64,000 nucleotides of DNA from IMG/VR virus record IMGVR_UViG_3300005660_000003, positions 10,261 through 74,260 of that record; one strand, given 5' to 3'. The position numbers were made by a program, and so were the translations under genes. Source of the stretch: a virus. Lineage: Duplodnaviria > Heunggongvirae > Uroviricota > Caudoviricetes. Of this stretch, positions 10,042 to 60,583 are shown one piece after another. Each line of letters begins with the position of its first letter. Positions within the stretch are counted from its first letter, which is position 1. The notes below the pieces were generated by a model, which saw only the letters and a list, made by a program, of their open reading frames with translations, was not told the DNA's origin and searched no databases.

Positions 10042-10596
10042 TTATGTATTTTTTTCCACTAATTTTTGAATATCCCCACAAGTGGAAATATTCTTCATAA
10101 TATATTTAAATCCTTTATACACTGAATCCTGATTTAAAATCTTCAACAATAAAAACTGCTCATATTTTGTAGCTAGCAGAAATACAAGTCCTGCCAATAT
10201 GGTGCGTTCTCTATTATGCACAGTAAATATATTATCTTCAAAATTCATTTTACCTAATAGGTCTTCTGCTAATTTTTTAGTAGCCTCATCTTTTGATATA
10301 AACATGTCCACAAGTGTTTTAGGATTTATTTCGTTAGAAAACGTAGTAAATTTTCTTTCATATGTACTTTTTATGCAGAAAAGATTTCCAACTGTAATTT
10401 TGGGATCATACTTTAGGGCGGTTGATATTAATGCGTTAGTAAAAGTTCTATCTACATAATATGTAAAACGCACATCAGGCTGATGATAATCAACTATCTT
10501 TATCTTTTCATTATATTTTTCTTCCATTAGATCTTCAATGTAAGTTTTTTCACCAGCACCCAAATTTATAAACGAACAAGCAAAGGCTTTACCCAA
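10042..10596 (-). CDS. hypothetical protein
   Basis: 184-aa ORF. Confidence 0.45.
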   Translation of the reverse strand: MGKAFACSFINLGAGEKTYIEDLMEEKYNEKIKIVDYHQPDVRFTYYVDRTFTNALISTALKYDPKITVGNLFCIKSTYERKFTTFSNEINPKTLVDMFISKDEATKKLAEDLLGKMNFEDNIFTVHNRERTILAGLVFLLATKYEQFLLLKILNQDSVYKGFKYIMKNISTCGDIQKLVEKNT

Positions 10597-20944: not shown

Positions 20945-21022
20945 TACCCCTCCGTGGATTTGAACCACGACTATGATAATGACAATCAAAGTGTCATGCA
21001 CTAAAAAGACCAGTAGCCTATC
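20945..21022 (-). tRNA. tRNA-like, Gln (UUG) anticodon arm and canonical T arm; acceptor stem not convincingly foldable (possible pseudo-tRNA)
   Basis: Anticodon arm tgaca-ctTTGat-tgtca and T arm cgtgg-ttcaaat-ccacg read on the minus strand. Confidence 0.3.
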
Positions 21023-21405
21023 ACGGTTTTGGGCGGGCTACTCCGCTTTCGTTATACGCTCATTCCACGGGTTAATGCCCGGATTTCCAACCGCCCCATT
21101 ATTTCTAATATCTGCCCAACTCCAAGATTCCGCCCCGTCAACATGAAGTAGGAAATTTATCTCCCCCTTGGGTAGTTCCGGGTGATCAGTATCTCTTAAG
21201 ATTTGCTGTACGGCGGCTGATATTGCTCTTTTTTGTTCTAGTGAAAAGATGGTATTCTCCTACTTGTTAAACTTTTTCCAAAGACTTTTTGTGTCTTCTT
21301 TTATAATTTTAAAAATTTCTACCGGGAGTATAAAGATACAAAAGAGTATAGCTAAGATGAGTGTTCTAAAGAATTTATTCAGGTTCGTGATCGATATAGC
21401 CATAA

Positions 21406-21847: not shown

Positions 21848-21925
21848 AGGGGTACAGGATTTGAACCTTATAAGATTAGTATATATCACTCGCTTAATAT
21901 ACCTGTTCGACCATTAAGAATAAAA
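21848..21925 (-). tRNA. tRNA-like fragment (T-loop/3' acceptor-like ggttcaaatcctgtacccct) without a foldable full cloverleaf
   Basis: Only the 3' third resembles a tRNA. Confidence 0.2.
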
Positions 21926-21986
21926 TCTGCATACGTTACAGATAAGATTATGCCGCTCATTTAAATCTTATAATAGCTCCGAAAAA

Positions 21987-22070
21987 TCCGCAAGACAGGA
22001 GTCGAACCTGCACGGGTTGTTAACCCAATAGCTTCTAACGCTACCGTGACTACCATTTCACCACTCGCGG
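21987..22070 (-). tRNA. tRNA-Leu (anticodon UAG), type II with long variable arm
   Basis: Hand fold: acceptor ccgcgag/cttgcgg; D arm gtga-aatggtag-tcac; anticodon stem gtagc/gctat with loop gtTAGaa; variable arm gggtt-aac-aaccc; T arm gcagg-ttcgact-cctgt. Length 84 nt. Confidence 0.6.
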
Positions 22071-22464: not shown

Positions 22465-22699
22465 GTTTCTTTTCCTTTAAAATATTACACTTCGTAATTC
22501 TTTTCAATATCACACCACTTTTGGACCCAACTATCTTTTAGGTTAGGTTCCCCATTTTCTTCATTACAAACCACAACAGAAGGCTCTGTTACTTCATAAG
22601 AGATCCGGCCATCTAAAGTATCCAATACCACAGTTCCTTCTGTTACTTCTTTAAGTATATAGATGGGATATTTATCAAAAGATCCACTCTTTGAAGAAG

Positions 22700-23250
22700 G
22701 AACCCAGCCGACTGGAGCGGTTTTATCATCGTTTGGCTGTACTAGATGACTTACGCCTTTTGGCGTTACCTTTTAAAAAGCTCCATTCGGAGCACTCTGA
22801 AAATTATCTTCAGCCCCGCCCCAAGATGCTCGTTTGTCTATTGTTATTTGCGATCTTCCTGCCCGTTTACATAGTTCATCGCCGAGTGCAGACTGTTCCT
22901 TGTAGCCTGCACTCGCATCAGCACTGTCGAACAAAACTTGACGAGACTTTCTTCTCCGAATTCTTTGTCGAATTCCGCCGGAGTGGAGAAATTCATCGCT
23001 CCGGAAATCCTCCACAGCATCGACTGCTCTTGCTTCGATAGATCGCAAATCAACACGCCACACCTCGCAAATAACAAAAAAATGCACAAGAGCCGCGATG
23101 GTCAGTTTTCACACATGGACGCTGGGCTCGTCGCGGCCATGTGATTTTTGGCGTTATTGGGTCTTCACACCAAATGAAGGGAACATTACGTTGTTTGCTT
23201 AATACTTTCTTCAAGATTCTTCTCCTAATACCAAAAATATTTAGAAGCAT
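22700..23250. other. GC-rich compositional island (about 50 percent GC in a one-third-GC genome) with only short, mutually overlapping ORFs on both strands
   Basis: Visible base-composition shift. No ORF product has recognisable motifs. One minus-strand frame is open from 23087 to about 22487 except for a single TAA at 22771-22773. Confidence 0.4.
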
Positions 23251-23437
23251 CATCTACAGACGATAGTTCTTCGGGCTCAAACACATGGGCGTCCTGCATA
23301 TTGCACTCACCATGTTTATATACAAGACATTTACCTGATCTGGTATAGTAACCAAATTCAAACAAAAAAGAGAAAGGCTTTTTAATAACTTTGTTAAAGC
23401 CATATGTAGCTAACACCGCTTGTTCTCTTTTAAACAT
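23225..23437 (-). CDS. small hypothetical protein
   Basis: 70-aa ORF downstream of nrdB. Confidence 0.35.
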   Translation of the reverse strand: MFKREQAVLATYGFNKVIKKPFSFLFEFGYYTRSGKCLVYKHGECNMQDAHVFEPEELSSVDDASKYFWY

Positions 23438-23444
23438 ATGACCC

Positions 23445-24503
23445 TCAATTCAAAAAGTCAAAATTCATAGTATCAACATCATTTACAGAAGCCCCAATTT
23501 TATAGGCATTATCAAGTTCTGTTTCTTGAGGGGCTTGTTGCGTAGAACTTGGGTTCATCCAATTGTTTACCCAACCACCTATAGGATTTTTAGTATTAAA
23601 CTCTTTCTCAAATCCAATATTCGTTAATCTGCTGTCTGTCAGCCACTCAATATACCCATGAAGAATGTGCTCATTTAGTCCAATAATCGCCCCATTTTTA
23701 AATAAGTGGGTCGCCCAATCCTTTTCTTGTTGGGCCGCCTCAATAAACATTAGTCTAGATTCCCCAGCTAGATCTTTAGCCACTTCTACAAAGCCCTCGT
23801 CTTTTTCTTTTTGTAGAATATCTATAATAGACTTTGTAATGGTTAAGTGAATAGCCTCATCTGCCCGAATCTTACTAATAATCTTAGCATTACCGATCAT
23901 CTTTTTGTTTTCAGCAAACGCAAAAGAACAAACAAAAGACACATAAAACCTAAGGGCTTCTAAAACATTAACACTTATTAGGGTCAAGTATATTTGTTCT
24001 TTTATATCTCTTGTGCCAAACTTAAGATTATCATACTGTTGAGACGCTACTTCTGCCCTTTTCATAATCTCTACATTTTGTAATATCCCGTCAAAAATTT
24101 CACTTGAACTCGGATAAACAGCCTGTATTACGGTTGAATATGATTTTGAGTGTATATTTTCATAAAATGCCCACGCACTCATACAGGTTTCTAGTTCGGT
24201 ATTTGTAACATGGTCCATTAGAATAGGAACACCCCTACTAATTACAGAGTCTAGTAAAGTTTGATATTGTAAGTTAGATGTAAAAATAAACCGTTCATTT
24301 TCATTCATATTCTTAAAATCTGTTTTATCTTGGGCCAAATTAAATTCATTCGGGGTCCAAAATAAGTCGGTTTGTTTGTCGAATAGGGATACGAATATTG
24401 GGTACTTGGGATCGTCATATCTTTGAATTGATAGATCTTCCCCTAGGAAAAGTGGCTGTGTTTTATTGTCTACTAAATTTCTATTTAAAATAGTTTTTTT
24501 CAT
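23445..24503 (-). CDS. nrdB: ribonucleotide reductase class Ia beta subunit
   Basis: Di-iron ligand pattern (E..H twice) and 352 aa. Immediately downstream of nrdA. Confidence 0.8.
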   Translation of the reverse strand: MKKTILNRNLVDNKTQPLFLGEDLSIQRYDDPKYPIFVSLFDKQTDLFWTPNEFNLAQDKTDFKNMNENERFIFTSNLQYQTLLDSVISRGVPILMDHVTNTELETCMSAWAFYENIHSKSYSTVIQAVYPSSSEIFDGILQNVEIMKRAEVASQQYDNLKFGTRDIKEQIYLTLISVNVLEALRFYVSFVCSFAFAENKKMIGNAKIISKIRADEAIHLTITKSIIDILQKEKDEGFVEVAKDLAGESRLMFIEAAQQEKDWATHLFKNGAIIGLNEHILHGYIEWLTDSRLTNIGFEKEFNTKNPIGGWVNNWMNPSSTQQAPQETELDNAYKIGASVNDVDTMNFDFLN

Positions 24504-24512
24504 TTGTTTTTT

Positions 24513-27500
24513 CTAAATTGAACAGGCCCCACCAGAACACCCTGACTCAACAGTCATATCGTCGGTGCCGTCTGGGGTTACTAAGTAATACAGGTTTTTA
24601 ATACCCAATTTGTGTGAGTATATCATTTGTTTAATTATTTCAGATAGTGGAATTTTACCATTAGGATAATTATTATAATCCATAAAAAGATTTAGAGATA
24701 TACTCATACATATCCATCTTTGCATTGATGCATAGATTTTAATATGATGGAGCTGATCTACCATTTCAAATGCTGTTGTGTAATAATTCTTATTTTTAGG
24801 CCAAGACGGAGGAATAACCTTAATTGCCCCAGAGCCAGATTTTTTAGTAGTCAAAAAACTACGTATTGCATCTACCCCATTTGTAGAATTTTGCACAACC
24901 GAAGACGATTCTACCGGCATTTCTGCAAGTAATGTAGAATTCATAAGACCGAACTCTAATATTCTTCCACGTAATTTTTCCCAATCCATTTTAGGTTTAT
25001 CTAAAAACTTTAACTCTTTAGCTGTGTCAATTGGTAAAATTCCATCTGCCCATTTAGTTTTTTCAAACCAAGGCATTCTTTCACCCAACTCTTCTGCTAT
25101 TTTACAAGAGGCACTTATCATATAATAGGAAACTTTTTCAAAAATATCAGAGGTTTCCTGCAGTACTTCTTGAGATGTAAGCTTTATCTTTTTGCTAGCC
25201 ATATAGGCCGCATAATTAGTGATTCCTATCCCTAGCGACCTATAGTTCTTACAAAAGTTTTCTGCTGCCGGGAATCTATACTCTTGAGAATCTATGACTT
25301 CGTGCAATATTCTAGATATAATATAGCACACACTTTCATACTCTTCTTCTTTTGTTGTAAGAACATTAACAGCAGATAGCACGCACACACCAATTAATCC
25401 ATCAGGGTCCTGTAGGTGTTGTACTGGTTTAAGTGGGTGAACGACCTCTTGGCAATTTCCAGTTAAAATCCCATTAAATACAGCTTTATGTTCTAACGGC
25501 TCATTTAAACAATACGTATCATCTTTTCTACCGTCGTCCGTTATATTGGCTACCGTAATAAATTGAGATGCCTCTCTCTGTGGTAATCTTTGATTAAATT
25601 TTAATCTATTTGTTTTAAACCCCATCAATGAAAGCTTATATAAATCATTTGAATTTATTAATAGTCTTTTTGTTTCCTTGCATGAGAATAATTTATACCC
25701 GCCACGACCATCTGGTAAAAGTCTGTCTCCAGTTTCTACTCCATTTACAATTTTACTATTTATACCAAGGGTTTGAAGCATTAATTGTAATTCATAAATA
25801 AATTCTTGCTCTATAGAAGAAACCTGTATTGACTCATTTGTTCCATTTCTAGCTATAGTTCCATCTCCATCTAAATAACCAGCTAACCAAGCGAGTTTTA
25901 TTTTAACCGAAGAGTTAGTTGGTATTTTAAATTTCATAGGCATATCTTCATGCATTACAACATTTCTTCTACCAGAGGTGTCTTCTCCTCTATCTTTTTT
26001 AATATCTAGAAACTTAACAAGATTTTTCTTTTCTCCATATAGAGATATTCTTCTTGCCGATCCAGTCTCATGTGTTCCGTCAGCACAAAATAGTCCGTGG
26101 GTATATGGATATTTAAAATCTTCTGATCCATCTACAATAGGTAGATCAAATTTACATAGCTTGTCACCCACCTTAAGATCTTTAGTTTCTTTAATGGTTA
26201 ACTTACCCTTAACTTGATCTGCATATGACTCAACAATATACCACTTGTGGTATGGTGTGCATTCTAAATATTTACCATCTGAAAGTATAACTTTAACAAG
26301 TTTTTTATTAACCCCAGTTTTTACAACTTGCGTTTTTGACCATTGTTTACCATTCCAAACAGATACAATTTCATTTTCTAGTTCACGTATTGGAATGTGA
26401 CCATCTTTCGTTAGTAACAATGTCTCTGGAGCAACACACAAATTACTAGTAGTAACTCTTTCTTTAAAAGTACTGTGCTCATTCACATTATCTATGTGCA
26501 TAATATATATACGGCCAGTTTCAAGTCTTTCTTTTGCTATTTGGTTTAATAACTCAGATGCCTTTATTCTCTTTGAGAACTTTCCCCCTTTTTCTTCTGC
26601 TCTTGTGTAGATCTCATCAAATTCGGGTAGTCCAAAACTATTATAAACCTCGGGAAATTCATGATAACTCATTAAGGTAACGTCCTCACCCTTCATAAAT
26701 CTATTATAAAGAATTCCACTAATCTGTATACAATAATCCATCCATCTTACCTTATTTTCATCCGCCCCCTTATTATTCTTATAAGTGAGAATATCCTCTA
26801 TCTCTGGATGAAAGAATGGGAAATTTATTGTAGCAGAACCTTTTCTAATTCCTCCTTGTGAGGTTGAATTAACAGAACTTTCAAGTAGCTTTGCAAACGG
26901 GCGAATACCTGTATGTTTAACTTCCCCGTTTCTAATAGGGGCATTTCTAGCCCGGATAGATCCCATGTCTAAGCCAATTCCAGACCTATCTGCTACATAC
27001 TGCCCGACTATATGACTAGACGAAAAGATGGAGTTTAATGTATCATCAATTTTAATTAATATACAGCTTGAGTAATTCTTTAGTTTAGTTCTTACGCCAG
27101 CTAAAATGGGGGTAGGGAGATTTATTTTAAACAAAGAAAGATAATCATAAGTTTTCTTTATTAAGTCTAATCTATTCTCGTAACTCTTAAATAAAACCAT
27201 TGGAATTAATATAAAAGCGAATTGGGGAGTTTCATATATTTTCCCCGTTGATCTATCCTTAATTAGATACTTATCACACATTTGCTGAATACCAGCGTGG
27301 GTAAACATAAAGTCTCTATCATGTTTAACCATTTTATTTATTTTGTGTATTTCAGACTCTGAGTATTCCTTTAGTATGTCCTCATTGTAAATAGTCTTAT
27401 TTTTTCTAAGATGGTCATACAACCTAGGTGGGTCACTTTCTCCCCAGACTTGTTTTCTTAGGGCGTATGTCCGCAGCCTCCCGGCAACATATTGATAATT

Positions 27501-27719
27501 AGGATTATCTAATGTTATTAGGTCATACGCCGATCTTACTAATATCTCTTGTATATCAGAGGTTTTCATCTTATTTGATATTGAAATCTTAGCGTTCATG
27601 GCTACATCACTAGCTGATACGTCACTTAAATCGCTACATGCCCACTCAAGGACTTTGTTAATTTTTTCAGCATTAAATTCTTCTAATTTACCATTTCTCT
27701 TTTTTATTTGTAAAGTCAC
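24513..27719 (-). CDS. nrdA: ribonucleotide reductase class Ia alpha subunit containing an intein
   Basis: N-terminal ATP-cone, then SNL-C...N-CQEV. The extein is about 740 aa. The 328-aa insert has Hint blocks and LAGLIDADG motifs. Confidence 0.9.
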   Translation of the reverse strand: MTLQIKKRNGKLEEFNAEKINKVLEWACSDLSDVSASDVAMNAKISISNKMKTSDIQEILVRSAYDLITLDNPNYQYVAGRLRTYALRKQVWGESDPPRLYDHLRKNKTIYNEDILKEYSESEIHKINKMVKHDRDFMFTHAGIQQMCDKYLIKDRSTGKIYETPQFAFILIPMVLFKSYENRLDLIKKTYDYLSLFKINLPTPILAGVRTKLKNYSSCILIKIDDTLNSIFSSSHIVGQYVADRSGIGLDMGSIRARNAPIRNGEVKHTGIRPFAKLLESSVNSTSQGGIRKGSATINFPFFHPEIEDILTYKNNKGADENKVRWMDYCIQISGILYNRFMKGEDVTLMSYHEFPEVYNSFGLPEFDEIYTRAEEKGGKFSKRIKASELLNQIAKERLETGRIYIMHIDNVNEHSTFKERVTTSNLCVAPETLLLTKDGHIPIRELENEIVSVWNGKQWSKTQVVKTGVNKKLVKVILSDGKYLECTPYHKWYIVESYADQVKGKLTIKETKDLKVGDKLCKFDLPIVDGSEDFKYPYTHGLFCADGTHETGSARRISLYGEKKNLVKFLDIKKDRGEDTSGRRNVVMHEDMPMKFKIPTNSSVKIKLAWLAGYLDGDGTIARNGTNESIQVSSIEQEFIYELQLMLQTLGINSKIVNGVETGDRLLPDGRGGYKLFSCKETKRLLINSNDLYKLSLMGFKTNRLKFNQRLPQREASQFITVANITDDGRKDDTYCLNEPLEHKAVFNGILTGNCQEVVHPLKPVQHLQDPDGLIGVCVLSAVNVLTTKEEEYESVCYIISRILHEVIDSQEYRFPAAENFCKNYRSLGIGITNYAAYMASKKIKLTSQEVLQETSDIFEKVSYYMISASCKIAEELGERMPWFEKTKWADGILPIDTAKELKFLDKPKMDWEKLRGRILEFGLMNSTLLAEMPVESSSVVQNSTNGVDAIRSFLTTKKSGSGAIKVIPPSWPKNKNYYTTAFEMVDQLHHIKIYASMQRWICMSISLNLFMDYNNYPNGKIPLSEIIKQMIYSHKLGIKNLYYLVTPDGTDDMTVESGCSGGACSI
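25455..26438 (-). mobile_element. intein (residues 428-755 of NrdA) with LAGLIDADG homing-endonuclease domain, inserted at the thiyl-radical Cys (SNL|C)
   Basis: Starts CVAPETLLLTKDG (block A). TPYH (block B). HGLFCADGT and LAGYLDGDGT motifs. Ends ...TGN followed by +1 Cys. Confidence 0.8.
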
Positions 27720-58196: not shown

Positions 58197-59061
58197 ATAT
58201 TACTACATCAGATTTAATAATCCAATCCACTTTATCTTTTTTGCACACATAGCATTCTTTAACCATTGCTGGATTGTAAATAGTCCCATTTATTACCTTA
58301 CCACAGTTTGCGTGTAGGATCATGCCGGTTTTAGGGCAGGTAATCATGTTCTTCTTGGAGTATTCCTCGCATACGCAACATTTTCTACCAATAAAATTTT
58401 CCATTGAACTAGCAATGTATGACGAATTAAACACCGATAACTGTTTTATAATGTTATCAATTATATCATAAAAGAACTTGTTTGTATCAAATGCTTTTGT
58501 AAAAATGGCATAATGTATGAACTCTCCGTATATATCAAAATATGGATGTTTTATTTTTCCATCAGTTTTTAATTTAATTATTCTTGGATGTAAAATATTT
58601 TCTTTACTAGTAAAAGTAACATGAATTGGGAAATTTTCAAATTGTAGGGTCCAAAACTCACCTGTCTTTATATTTTTATTATGTAAATTTAAATCAACAC
58701 TAAAATATAAACTTTGGTTACCGGAATGTTTTATAAATTTTATGCTTGGGTACTTTTCTTCTAGTTCTTTTATTTGAGAATCTAGTGTGGCAGGGTTGAA
58801 TTCTTCAAAAGAATTTAAGTAATCCAAATCTATGTCTGAATATTTCGACATATTATCTCGTATCTCTGGATACTTTCTTTTTTCAATATATTCGTCAATT
58901 TTGTTTTTTTCTTTATGTAATCTGATTATCTTTGAAAGTAGGAGGTCGTATACATGTTGTAAGGCATGGTTTTCTTTAAGCGTATTTATTTGCTCAAGAA
59001 AAGCCTCTGTGTATACACTCTTATCTAGTGCGGGTTTTTTTGTTGGCATTGCTGTTACCAA
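58174..59061 (-). CDS. E2-like paralog lacking the catalytic Cys (UEV-like?), same C-terminal Cys-rich zinc-ribbon domain
   Basis: Same two-domain architecture as 57282..58196. The HP-containing loop ILHPRIIKLKTDGKIKHP has no Cys. Confidence 0.45.
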   Translation of the reverse strand: MVTAMPTKKPALDKSVYTEAFLEQINTLKENHALQHVYDLLLSKIIRLHKEKNKIDEYIEKRKYPEIRDNMSKYSDIDLDYLNSFEEFNPATLDSQIKELEEKYPSIKFIKHSGNQSLYFSVDLNLHNKNIKTGEFWTLQFENFPIHVTFTSKENILHPRIIKLKTDGKIKHPYFDIYGEFIHYAIFTKAFDTNKFFYDIIDNIIKQLSVFNSSYIASSMENFIGRKCCVCEEYSKKNMITCPKTGMILHANCGKVINGTIYNPAMVKECYVCKKDKVDWIIKSDVVICGACDVN

Positions 59062-59221
59062 GAGATTACTCCGTAAGAAAATTTTTAAATAATTAAAGTA
59101 GGTGGAGCGTTTCCACGAAGATGGTTATTGTTCCGAGTATAAAGTTTGCGCAAGTATTACAAACAAAGTAAAAGGGGTGGAATTAAATTCCACCCCTTTA
59201 TCCTTAAGCGGTCAGACTATT

Positions 59222-59437
59222 TTAGCCTGCATCGACCTTGCCCAAGCTCACAGTCAAAATATCGCCGTCACCAAGAGGCGTTTCTGTGTTTGCCTGCATT
59301 CCGTTCACGCGATATACAGATCCGCTTGGAGCCCCAACTCGTGAGCCAGCAGCCCCCGCAGTAGAGCCGTGAGACAGGGTTACTGATACCTGATTGCCGT
59401 CTGAAAAAGCCTTGATAACGTTTACTGTAATGTTCAA
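59222..59437 (-). CDS. ubiquitin-like beta-grasp protein (ThiS/MoaD-like), C-terminus ...GKVDAG
   Basis: 71 aa. PLGDGDILTVSLGKVDAG resembles the ThiS/MoaD C-terminal ...DGD.I....V.GG. First gene of the E2-E2-JAB-E1 chain. Confidence 0.6.
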   Translation of the reverse strand: MNITVNVIKAFSDGNQVSVTLSHGSTAGAAGSRVGAPSGSVYRVNGMQANTETPLGDGDILTVSLGKVDAG

Positions 59438-59528
59438 GTGATTACTCCAACTAAAAAACCAAAAAGATGTGGGTGGCCAACATTAACCACCCACTGAAAA
59501 CTAATCTCGGACTTTCGTCCTTCAAATA

Positions 59529-59942
59529 CTACTCAGCTTTTGGAGCTGGCACTGACCAAATCAGGTCGTCGTTTGTTGGAACAAGCAATCCCGCACACTG
59601 TGCGAACTGAATAGCAGACTGCTTAGCTCCAACCGCAGCAGCCAAGCAGAATATGTTCTGCGTTGACTGAGCGTGCGCAGCGGCCACATTGATTCTGTCA
59701 ATTTCTTTATGCACACTTGCCAACTCATCCTCAAGGTTCTTCTTGGCCCGAGCCAACGCTGTGGAACGGTTTTGAGCTGATGTAAGAACACCAACAGTAA
59801 ACCCTTCCAATTTTTCAAGAGCAGCAGCCTGCTTCTTTGCCAAAGCCTTACCAATTACGTCTGAACCAAACGTAGATGGGGCAATAACATCCGCAACAGT
59901 CAAAGTTGACAACGGATTCACAACACTCGTACTTTCACTCAT
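59529..59942 (-). CDS. Ala-rich hypothetical protein (start assigned to the internal Met with RBS; ORF-track start at 60011 is less likely)
   Basis: agggaag lies 8 nt upstream of the ATG at 59942. Coiled-coil-like Ala/Lys/Glu-rich sequence. GC-rich. Confidence 0.4.
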   Translation of the reverse strand: MSESTSVVNPLSTLTVADVIAPSTFGSDVIGKALAKKQAAALEKLEGFTVGVLTSAQNRSTALARAKKNLEDELASVHKEIDRINVAAAHAQSTQNIFCLAAAVGAKQSAIQFAQCAGLLVPTNDDLIWSVPAPKAE

Positions 59943-60010
59943 AAAACTTCCCTTTGCAAAGGAAACTATAAAATGGGAGCAACTACATATTACCCCCGGT
60001 AAACTACACA

Positions 60011-60583
60011 CTAATCACCAAAGCCATCATTAAGTAAAAATGGCCTTTGTGGACTCGAATCAGAAATTGTCCAACTAATTTCTGGACTTCTTAATTGATT
60101 TTTGTTTTTAACTACACCTATAATCTTCCTGTCGAAATTAGGTAAAAGCATTTCTATCTTATTGTTATTATTTATCGACAATTCAAAATCTTGGAAAGCG
60201 AAACTTTTTGAGTCTTTATCATACGGTATGTTTTTCGTATAATATAGAAATGAAAAGTTTGTTTTGTCTTCGGTTTCTTTTAACCCTGTAATCACGCAGG
60301 AGAATATATGGTCGCACGCCAATGAAATCGCATATGGAAAACCATCTATCGTACGTTGGAATTTAGTGTGCCCAGTAAATCTTACTGAAGATCCATCGTA
60401 AATATTAATTACCTCGGCGTATCCTTCTGGGGTAATTTGTACGTATACCCTTCTACCATCTGGATTTTTCTTATTCGTAAAGAAATGTAGATCATTGCTA
60501 TATGTTTTTCCAACATATGTATGGTCAAACATTCTTCCCCATTTATGAAGTAGTGGGTGACTTTTATACTGTAATTGCGTCAT
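60011..60583 (-). CDS. hypothetical protein
   Basis: 190-aa ORF. Confidence 0.45.
   Translation of the reverse strand: MTQLQYKSHPLLHKWGRMFDHTYVGKTYSNDLHFFTNKKNPDGRRVYVQITPEGYAEVINIYDGSSVRFTGHTKFQRTIDGFPYAISLACDHIFSCVITGLKETEDKTNFSFLYYTKNIPYDKDSKSFAFQDFELSINNNNKIEMLLPNFDRKIIGVVKNKNQLRSPEISWTISDSSPQRPFLLNDGFGD

Follow-up and report, generated by a model that had tools for sequence, protein, structure and literature searches.

A stretch of 64,000 nucleotides (nt) from a virus of the Caudoviricetes (IMG/VR record IMGVR_UViG_3300005660_000003, positions 10,261 to 74,260; referred to here as the window) contains, between a cluster of tRNA genes and nrdB, an island that is rich in guanine plus cytosine (GC) and that raises the question of what kind of DNA it is. 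A preliminary description of positions 22480 to 23250, which was made from the letters alone, had found no convincing gene and no recognizable motifs there and had listed horizontally acquired DNA, a decayed gene, a structured RNA, and an intron remnant as candidate explanations. The analysis presented in this study shows clear protein homologues in two minus-strand frames, and the island is very probably a mosaic that arose by horizontal gene transfer into a gene; i.e., a foreign cassette with a complete gene for a protein of 70 amino acids (aa) interrupts a resident gene for a 139-aa protein. The two explanations that the preliminary description had kept apart, acquired DNA and a decayed gene, are thus both borne out, each for a different part of the island, and the claim that no gene is present has to be dropped, while the composition remains distinct and the island as such stands.

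The segment from 22700 to 23200 has a GC content of 47.9%, compared with a window mean of 35.3% (standard deviation, 4.0%; 500-nt windows), and only 0.29% of the 500-nt windows reach this value. With 200-nt windows, the GC fraction is 0.47 to 0.485 at approximately 22700 to 23200 and 0.31 to 0.38 in the rest of the region, and the highest 300-nt value around the island is 50.3%, at 22854. The open reading frames (ORFs) in the island overlap each other on both strands, as had been noted and as the ORF listing confirms, and a minus-strand frame extends from 23087 to 22488, interrupted only by one in-frame TAA, behind which there is no ATG. This TAA had been placed at 22771-22773; its true position is given in Table 1. 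The island is not unique in its composition, since a second one at approximately 59041-59990 also reaches 50.3% GC in a 300-nt window. ORFs with coding-like scores, of 71 aa (59222-59437) and 160 aa (59529-60011), lie on the minus strand of the second island, which may be another foreign acquisition.

The long minus-strand frame was examined with a codon-usage log-odds score trained on 50 long ORFs of the window, for which true frames give 0.27 ± 0.08 per codon and wrong frames give a mean of -0.70 with a 95th percentile of -0.17. The frame scores 0.19 per codon upstream of the TAA and 0.32 downstream of it, and the 47 start-less codons directly after the TAA score 0.29; these values are matched by only 0.1 to 0.5% of shuffles. 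Inside the insert alone, the score is a marginal 0.10 (p of approximately 0.05); the frame is weakly coding-like there because its GC content at first codon positions (0.60) is the GC content at third codon positions (GC3) of the foreign gene, one base out of phase. The 104-aa ORF called in this frame (o104) is a chimera, in which codons 1 to 79 correspond to an out-of-phase reading of the foreign 70-aa gene and the last 25 codons belong to the resident gene.

The resident gene was recognized in an exhaustive HMMER search, in which the two halves of the long frame, joined by X, served as the query. Besides the predicted ORF of the frame itself, this query matches 47 proteins, mostly of 130 to 170 aa, with E values down to 1e-30. 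The alignments mostly cover residues 79 to 200, a span that begins 25 codons before the TAA and extends across it. The N-termini of the homologues (e.g., MKKVKSKQRNVKFSYCPSPVTIDKS and MKKVLSKQRSVAFIICRSPL) are not found in the long frame but match another minus-strand frame upstream of the insert, and they agree with the N-terminus predicted from the TTG at 23214. When 23214-23153 is joined to 22842-22488, a 139-aa protein results, which matches 85 database proteins of 139 to 144 aa over 99 to 100% of their length with up to 69% identity and E values down to 4e-56. The 3' fragment has a codon-usage score of 0.32 to 0.40 per codon, compared with the 0.27 ± 0.08 of true frames, and the 5' fragment ends in the left copy of the 6-nt repeat AATAAC.

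The break lies after codon 21, within the most conserved motif of the family, C-x-x-P-x-T/I-D-K (the slash marks the break), which is free of insertions and deletions in the alignment. The 310-nt insertion shifts the resident frame after this codon. In all 27 loci of relatives that were examined, the site is uninterrupted and the cassette is missing. Apart from the break and the TAA at codon 44, the resident copy is well preserved and retains all 28 columns that are invariant in the alignment. The AlphaFold2 model of the 139-aa family, with a predicted local distance difference test (pLDDT) value of 95, consists of β-strands and a C-terminal helix, and no solved fold matched it convincingly. 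The family is missing from the cultured phages of INPHARED, and two relatives are present in IMG/VR. Lesions of other kinds are seen in relatives: in L109 (1084-1200), a deletion of approximately 14 nt and a frameshift follow KQRN; in L136 (180-310), a 1-nt frameshift follows DW; and in L107 (350-440), the N-terminal part of the gene is lost, and a GC-rich stretch with a Cys-rich 78-aa ORF is found instead. The variety of these lesions suggests that the 139-aa gene is dispensable and frequently lost. To judge from its sequence, the resident copy appears to be a recent pseudogene, which would have served as a neutral landing pad for the insertion.

The cassette has the same orientation as the resident gene and consists of a leader followed by the foreign 70-aa gene. 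A protein search with the third minus-strand frame of the insert identified six clusters of homologues with 81 to 94% amino acid identity and E values down to 3e-36. These homologues are free-standing genes for 70 to 71 aa, which lie among other small genes in contigs L137-L146, and the contigs that hold them have a GC content of 50 to 52%. At the nucleotide level, L145 and the window are 82.8% identical without gaps over 23058-22844, which is exactly the ORF, and L137-L144 show 76% similarity over 23055-22848; no nucleotide similarity to L145 or to L137-L144 was found outside the 70-aa ORF. The differences between the window and L145 at codon positions 1, 2, and 3 number 7, 1, and 29, respectively, and 28 codon changes are synonymous and 4 are nonsynonymous, a pattern that marks a translated gene under purifying selection. 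The GC3 of the 70-aa gene is 0.61, close to the values of its relatives (0.62 and 0.54), whereas that of the long ORFs of the window is 0.30. The acquired part of the island is the 304-bp core, whose gene has the codon usage of homologues in phages of 50 to 52% GC. The 70-aa protein is predicted by AlphaFold2 to form three helices (pLDDT of 83), and its family is missing from both INPHARED cultured phages and IMG/VR. Neither family, nor any ORF of the island, has a match in Pfam, PHROGs, PADLOC, or the PDB sequences, and blastn and tblastn searches against INPHARED phages and PLSDB plasmids gave no match. Two exact matches to other DNA were rejected as chance, since neither extends further: a 22-mer (22967-22988) that is identical to positions 1464-1485 of L135, a metagenome-assembled genome of the Betaproteobacteria, in a Bug/TctC gene (STPAEFD), and a 19-mer in the phage L096, which has a GC content of 72%.

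In the leader, a GC-rich hairpin (23143-23085) is followed by a run of seven U residues (23082-23076) in a terminator-like arrangement. The hairpin segment has a predicted folding energy of -18.1 kcal/mol and the whole leader one of -26.5 kcal/mol, and the hairpin looks like the terminator of whatever preceded the 70-aa gene in the donor. No sigma-70-like promoter was found in the insert. A GAGG ribosome-binding site lies 6 nt before the GTG start codon, and the 70-aa gene is probably still expressed, considering that its ORF is intact and that this site and the start have been kept. The resident frame runs from the 5' fragment into the cassette and forms a remnant ORF that spans 23050..23253 in the ORF listing; its UGA lies 2 nt past the GUG start of the 70-aa gene (GUGUUGA), an arrangement that could couple translation of the 70-aa gene to the resident TTG start with its strong AGGAG site. 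The 3' end of the 70-aa ORF (22841-22856) is complementary to its own codons 2 to 5 (23040-23050, 11 bp) and also to the leader, including the ribosome-binding region (23065-23077, 13 bp). The 11-bp pairing is nearly retained in L145 and not in L137, and it is probably incidental.

The junctions are defined to the base. At the gene end, L145 reads GAT CGC AAA TAA G and the window reads GAT CGC AAA TAA C, after which AATAGAC of the resident gene follows; since the L145 gene end has it, the right AATAA(C) is native to the incoming gene. At least 10 independent assemblies carry the same phage, with 100% identity across the region. In sequencing run SRR28148161, the last base of the Logan contig SRR28148161_521354, which closes with ...CCAATAAC, is exactly 23153, and SRR28148161_687542 begins exactly at 22848. 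The flanks in this run are 99.9% identical to the window, with the TAA on the shared flank. Each of the two breaks coincides with the outer edge of one repeat copy, as is expected of a bubble in a de Bruijn graph, and alleles with and without the insert are therefore likely to coexist in SRR28148161, a reading that rests on the positions of the contig ends. Other contig ends were also noted near the island: position 22670 is the exact end or start of short contigs in two assemblies that are independent of each other, Logan SRR29748406 and ENA ERZ27275116, and one more ENA contig ends at 23200. These ends may reflect low coverage or further variation around the island.

The course of events that would fit these junctions is as follows. 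The resident 139-aa gene, which runs on the minus strand from the TTG at 23214 to the stop codon at 22485, would first have acquired the TAA. A 304-bp piece from a phage lineage of approximately 50% GC, comprising the terminator-like leader and the complete 70-aa gene, would then have entered after codon 21, and the right junction would have formed within 5 to 6 nt of identity between the foreign AAA-TAA-C and the resident CCA-ATA-AC. Given this identity, microhomology-mediated illegitimate recombination is the most likely mechanism, and it would have left AATAAC at both junctions as an apparent 6-nt duplication. The TAA is probably older than the insertion because it lies on the flank common to both SRR28148161 alleles, and the cassette would thus probably have landed in a gene that had already been inactivated.

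Several observations weigh against this account of the island. Every invariant column of the resident gene has been kept despite the two lesions, so that, unless both lesions are very recent, the gene is not simply dead. The insert folds better than its shuffles (z of -3.1 in the sense and -6.0 in the antisense direction), which is not required of a plain coding cassette. The leader matched nothing in searches of phage and plasmid collections and of the regions upstream of the 70-aa relatives. The sequence of the insert-free allele was not recovered, and the 24-mer of the empty site is missing from the metagenome contigs of JGI. Finally, the insertion interrupts the best conserved motif of the resident gene, and a 521-nt contig of the diverged relative L108 (ENA ERZ27234785 k141_1619518), which occurs in two samples, has the homologous T-I-D-K codons as its exact starting point; the position and this contig start hint at a site preference rather than a random landing.

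The relative L108 also bears on the nature of the TAA. In the alignment, the Leu that is replaced by the TAA is conserved in at least 90% of the family members, and the codon is TTG, CTN, or TTA in 24 loci of relatives. Every assembly of this phage (L099 included) has the TAA, and since at least 10 of these assemblies are independent, the stop is not a sequencing error. Among the relatives, only L108, which is approximately 58% identical, has an in-frame TAA at the same Leu codon (positions 70-72; ..PNGAF*RMSSETE.., where the asterisk is the stop codon), and its sequence downstream is intact and fully conserved. Recurrence of the same stop codon in a diverged relative is unexpected for random decay and is the one residual oddity of the locus. 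It could mean that the TAA is a recoding or regulatory site that is read through, or suppressed by a suppressor tRNA of the phage or host, so that the insert-free allele would give a functional full-length protein. The two stops look independent, considering that closer relatives carry TTG; the part of the window copy after the stop keeps the invariant residues, with an identity to homologues of 0.60 compared with 0.62 between homologues; and a hairpin begins 7 nt past the stop. We nevertheless consider recoding unlikely, together with the linked idea that T/IDK is a preferred landing site for cassettes. The search for an ochre-suppressor tRNA in the window gave nothing at credible ARAGORN thresholds, and what is called at -ps70 to -ps85 is noise. 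Genuine ORF ends here use TAA more often than any other stop codon (23 of the 50 long ORFs), and the plainly disabling lesions in L109, L136, and L107 fit a dispensable gene. Two hits by chance on one of approximately 60 stop-mutable codons have a probability of approximately 2%, which is low but not negligible. Frameshifting at the sequence U-UUU-UAA-AAG was rejected, as both shifted frames meet stop codons within 3 to 17 codons.

A mobile intron, self-splicing or otherwise spliced, would be a different account of the 310-nt sequence, in which the 70-aa ORF is carried by the intron and the 139-aa gene is expressed after splicing. Removal of the 310 nt restores the family consensus exactly, the most conserved motif is a typical site for homing introns, presence of the insert is apparently polymorphic between near-identical genomes, the RNA is more structured than its shuffles (the sense z value given above), a 13-mer within the insert (23077-23065) could pair with the 3' junction and its GUUAUU with the end of the 5' exon, and nrdA of the same phage contains an intein. 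Several features argue against an intron, however. No group I or group II covariance model matches at E values of ≤10, even with the insert alone and lax filters, and the group I model RF00028 has no match at this threshold in the window, a 1.8-kb region, or an insert segment of 361 nt. Rfam searches at both the gathering threshold and an E value of ≤10 (window, 1.8-kb region, insert, and loci of relatives) found tRNAs only. The junction is placed within AATAAC by both the alignment of homologues and the contig breaks. None of the seven possible cuts within the repeat gives G as the last intron base, and only one gives U as the last exon base; when all pairs of splice sites that obey the U/G rule were enumerated, none reproduced C-x-x-P-x-T-I-D-K. 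As for group II introns, the GUGYG...AY ends are missing (the insert starts with GCCAA), the length of 304 to 310 nt is below approximately 400 nt, and the sole match resembling domain V is a 14-nt hairpin with an E value of 10. The relatives of the ORF are free-standing, and the similarity stops at the ORF ends, which leaves no conserved flanking ribozyme parts. In addition, the right repeat copy is the stop region of the 70-aa ORF itself, G-U pairs are equally frequent on both strands, and splicing would rescue nothing, as the TAA lies 22 codons downstream. An intron, or the intron remnant that had been proposed, is hence very unlikely.

Still less credible is a nonautonomous transposable element, whether a miniature inverted-repeat transposable element, a palindrome-associated transposable element of the IS200/IS605 type, or an IS110-type element with a guide RNA, for which AATAAC would be the target-site duplication. 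Such an element would account for the 6-nt direct repeat at both junctions, the apparent, precise presence/absence polymorphism, the strong hairpins near the left end, and the internal sequence that is complementary to a junction. On the other hand, the ends, GCCAAAAATCAC... and ...GAAGATCGCA, form no terminal inverted repeat, the 64-kb window holds no second copy of the insert, the relatives have the ORF only and neither the ends nor the leader, and translated searches did not bring up the complete unit anywhere else. The right repeat is native to the stop-codon region of L145 and hence predates the insertion.

A free-standing structured noncoding RNA on either strand is the least probable of these explanations: the GC-rich composition in an AT-rich genome, the adjoining tRNA genes, the folding z values of -2.9 to -6.0 (-2.9 and -4.8 for the region on the two strands, in addition to those of the insert), and the terminator-like hairpins at 22753-22793 are in its favor, but all of the island except the 96-nt leader is accounted for by protein-coding sequence with homologues, similarity to the relatives is limited to the ORF and the differences from them fall mostly on third codon positions, the need to encode the conserved peptide A-P-N-G-A largely dictates the hairpin GCUCC-GAAU-GGAGC at the TAA, the complementarity between the 5' and 3' parts of the ORF is not kept in L137, and Rfam has no match. 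The copies of the region in the independent assemblies are identical, so that they allow no comparative RNA analysis. Inteins are rejected, as 310 is not a multiple of 3 and stops lie in frame, and so is translational bypass, given the length of the insert and the real gene inside it.

The positions of these features and of the neighboring genes are collected in Table 1. All genes near the island are on the minus strand. In the relatives L001-L003, whose NrdB is 80% identical, the gene order differs, and the island is absent. The nrdA gene holds an intein with a LAGLIDADG endonuclease domain (CVAPETLLL...), which is missing from the nrdA of the closest relative, L001 (740 aa).

Table 1. Coordinates in the 64,000-nt window (unless stated otherwise) of the mosaic gene, its inserted cassette, and the neighboring genes.
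Feature	Position	Strand	Remarks
nrdA	24513-27719	-	large subunit of class I ribonucleotide reductase, 1068 aa
nrdB	23445-24503	-	
70-aa neighbor ORF	23225-23437	-	between nrdB and the island
Shine-Dalgarno sequence of the resident gene	23222..23226	-	AGGAG, 7 nt upstream of the TTG start; read from the sequence
Resident gene, 5' fragment	23153..23214	-	TTG, then MKKVLSKQRNVPFIWCEDPIT; 20 codons + 2 nt
Left AATAAC repeat	23153..23158	-	resident codons CCA-ATA-AC
Foreign cassette	22849..23152	-	304 bp, 50.3% GC; 310 bp including one repeat copy
Cassette leader	23057..23152	-	96 nt, 52% GC
Foreign 70-aa gene	22844..23056	-	GTG start, TAA stop at 22844-22846; MLICDLSKQEQSMLWRISGAMNFSTPAEFDKEFGEESLVKFCSTVLMRVQATRNSLHSAMNYVNGQEDRK
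UGA ending the remnant resident 5' ORF	23050..23052	-	2 nt past the GUG of the 70-aa gene
Right AATAAC repeat	22843..22848	-	AATAA common to the foreign ORF end (AAA-TAA) and resident A-ATA-AC
Resident gene, 3' fragment	22485..22842	-	IDKRASWGG...EKNYEV + stop; same frame as the long open frame
Premature in-frame TAA	22773..22775	-	resident codon 44; replaces the near-invariant Leu of the motif NGAF-L-K
TAA context, window copy	22773-22775 region	-	GGAGCTTTTTAAAAGGTAACGCCAAAAGGCGT
TAA context, relative L108	L108 70-72		GCATTCTAAAGGATG
Predicted insert-free junction sequence			in-silico deletion of 23152-22843; GAAGACCCAATAAC / AATAGACAAA
75-aa ORF		-	between the island and tRNA-Leu
tRNA-Leu	21987-22070	-	

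The tRNA region beside the island contains other irregular sequences, all on the minus strand. A tRNA-like gene of 111 to 113 nt at 18985-19097 matches the Rfam tRNA model with 39 bits and a 41-nt insertion; with introns allowed, but not otherwise, ARAGORN reports a tRNA-Leu(CAA) whose positions 33 and 34 are separated by a 27-nt insert, and this insert is far too short for a group I intron. At 21038-21262, a 70-codon ORF (21250-21041, stop at 21038-21040; score of 0.25 per codon) has no ATG, GTG, or TTG and follows, in the same frame, right after the TAG (21260-21262) that ends a small membrane-like ORF, with an AGGAG site 6 nt before an ATC codon. It could be translated from a noncanonical start or by read-through, or it could be one more broken gene. 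Two degenerate tRNA-like sequences are also present, one at 20945-21010 (23 bits with Rfam) without a D arm and the other at approximately 21860-21960 with a GGTTCAAATCC T-loop, which is called by no tool.

The biology of the island is of an ordinary and known kind, i.e., moron-like acquisition of a gene, most likely by illegitimate recombination, which here took place in a decaying accessory gene, and the findings leave the known principles unchanged. They do correct a tempting reading, as GC-rich islands in which no ORF stands out are, in AT-rich phages, often flagged as candidates for structured RNAs or introns. Gene calling was misled twice at this locus: a chimeric 104-aa ORF was called in the wrong frame, and both real genes were missed because the resident gene is split and the 70-aa gene starts with GTG and overlaps the chimera. 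The locus offers a base-resolved snapshot of phage mosaicism in progress, in which the codon usage of the donor is kept, the junction appears to be one of 5 to 6 nt of microhomology, the landing site lies in a dispensable and probably already inactive gene, and alleles with and without the insert likely coexist in nature. Two uncharacterized families of phage proteins are defined, one of 139 aa with a confident all-β model and one of 70 aa with three predicted helices, and the recurrent stop codon in the 139-aa family is flagged.

Among known systems, the cassette is closest in kind to the phage morons, a concept of mosaic gene acquisition by illegitimate recombination that is reportedly due to Hendrix, Juhala, and colleagues. 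Moron-type mosaic gene acquisition is discussed, for example, in PMC3029335. Like a moron, the cassette brings a small extra gene whose composition (50.3% compared with 35.3% GC) and codon usage (GC3 of 0.61 compared with 0.30) are unlike those of its surroundings, has its own translation signals, is probably joined to its flanks through microhomology of a few bases, and is related to genes of unrelated phages. As with morons, the gene may be present in some near-identical genomes and missing in others, to judge from the 27 homologous genes, none of which carries it, and from the contig ends. Classical morons lie between genes and are flanked by a promoter and a terminator of their own, whereas the present cassette divides the gene in which it lies and has its terminator-like hairpin before the ORF, with no promoter identified in it.

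The group I introns of the T-even genes td, nrdB, and nrdD also contain ORFs. The insert resembles them in its length of a few hundred nucleotides, its conserved site, its ORF, its likely polymorphism among close relatives, and its location near nrd genes, but it differs from them in that covariance models find no ribozyme core, the ends are not exon U and intron G, and the 70-aa ORF does not belong to a homing endonuclease family and has free-standing relatives without flanking intron sequence. The bypass element of T4 gene 60 is a 50-nt insert with matched take-off and landing codons, which is mobile together with mobA. Both are inserts in a coding sequence that are flanked by identical short sequences (here, AAU-AAC); however, the insert of this study has 310 nt instead of 50, contains a complete gene, and has no stop codon right after the take-off codon, and its matched sequence is explained by the stop region of the foreign ORF. 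The resident gene, finally, resembles recent pseudogenes of dispensable phage accessory genes, in that it has a premature stop codon and an insertion and is otherwise free of decay, and in that its relatives carry independent frameshifts, deletions, and truncations; unlike in such pseudogenes, the same nonsense codon recurs in a second, diverged lineage.

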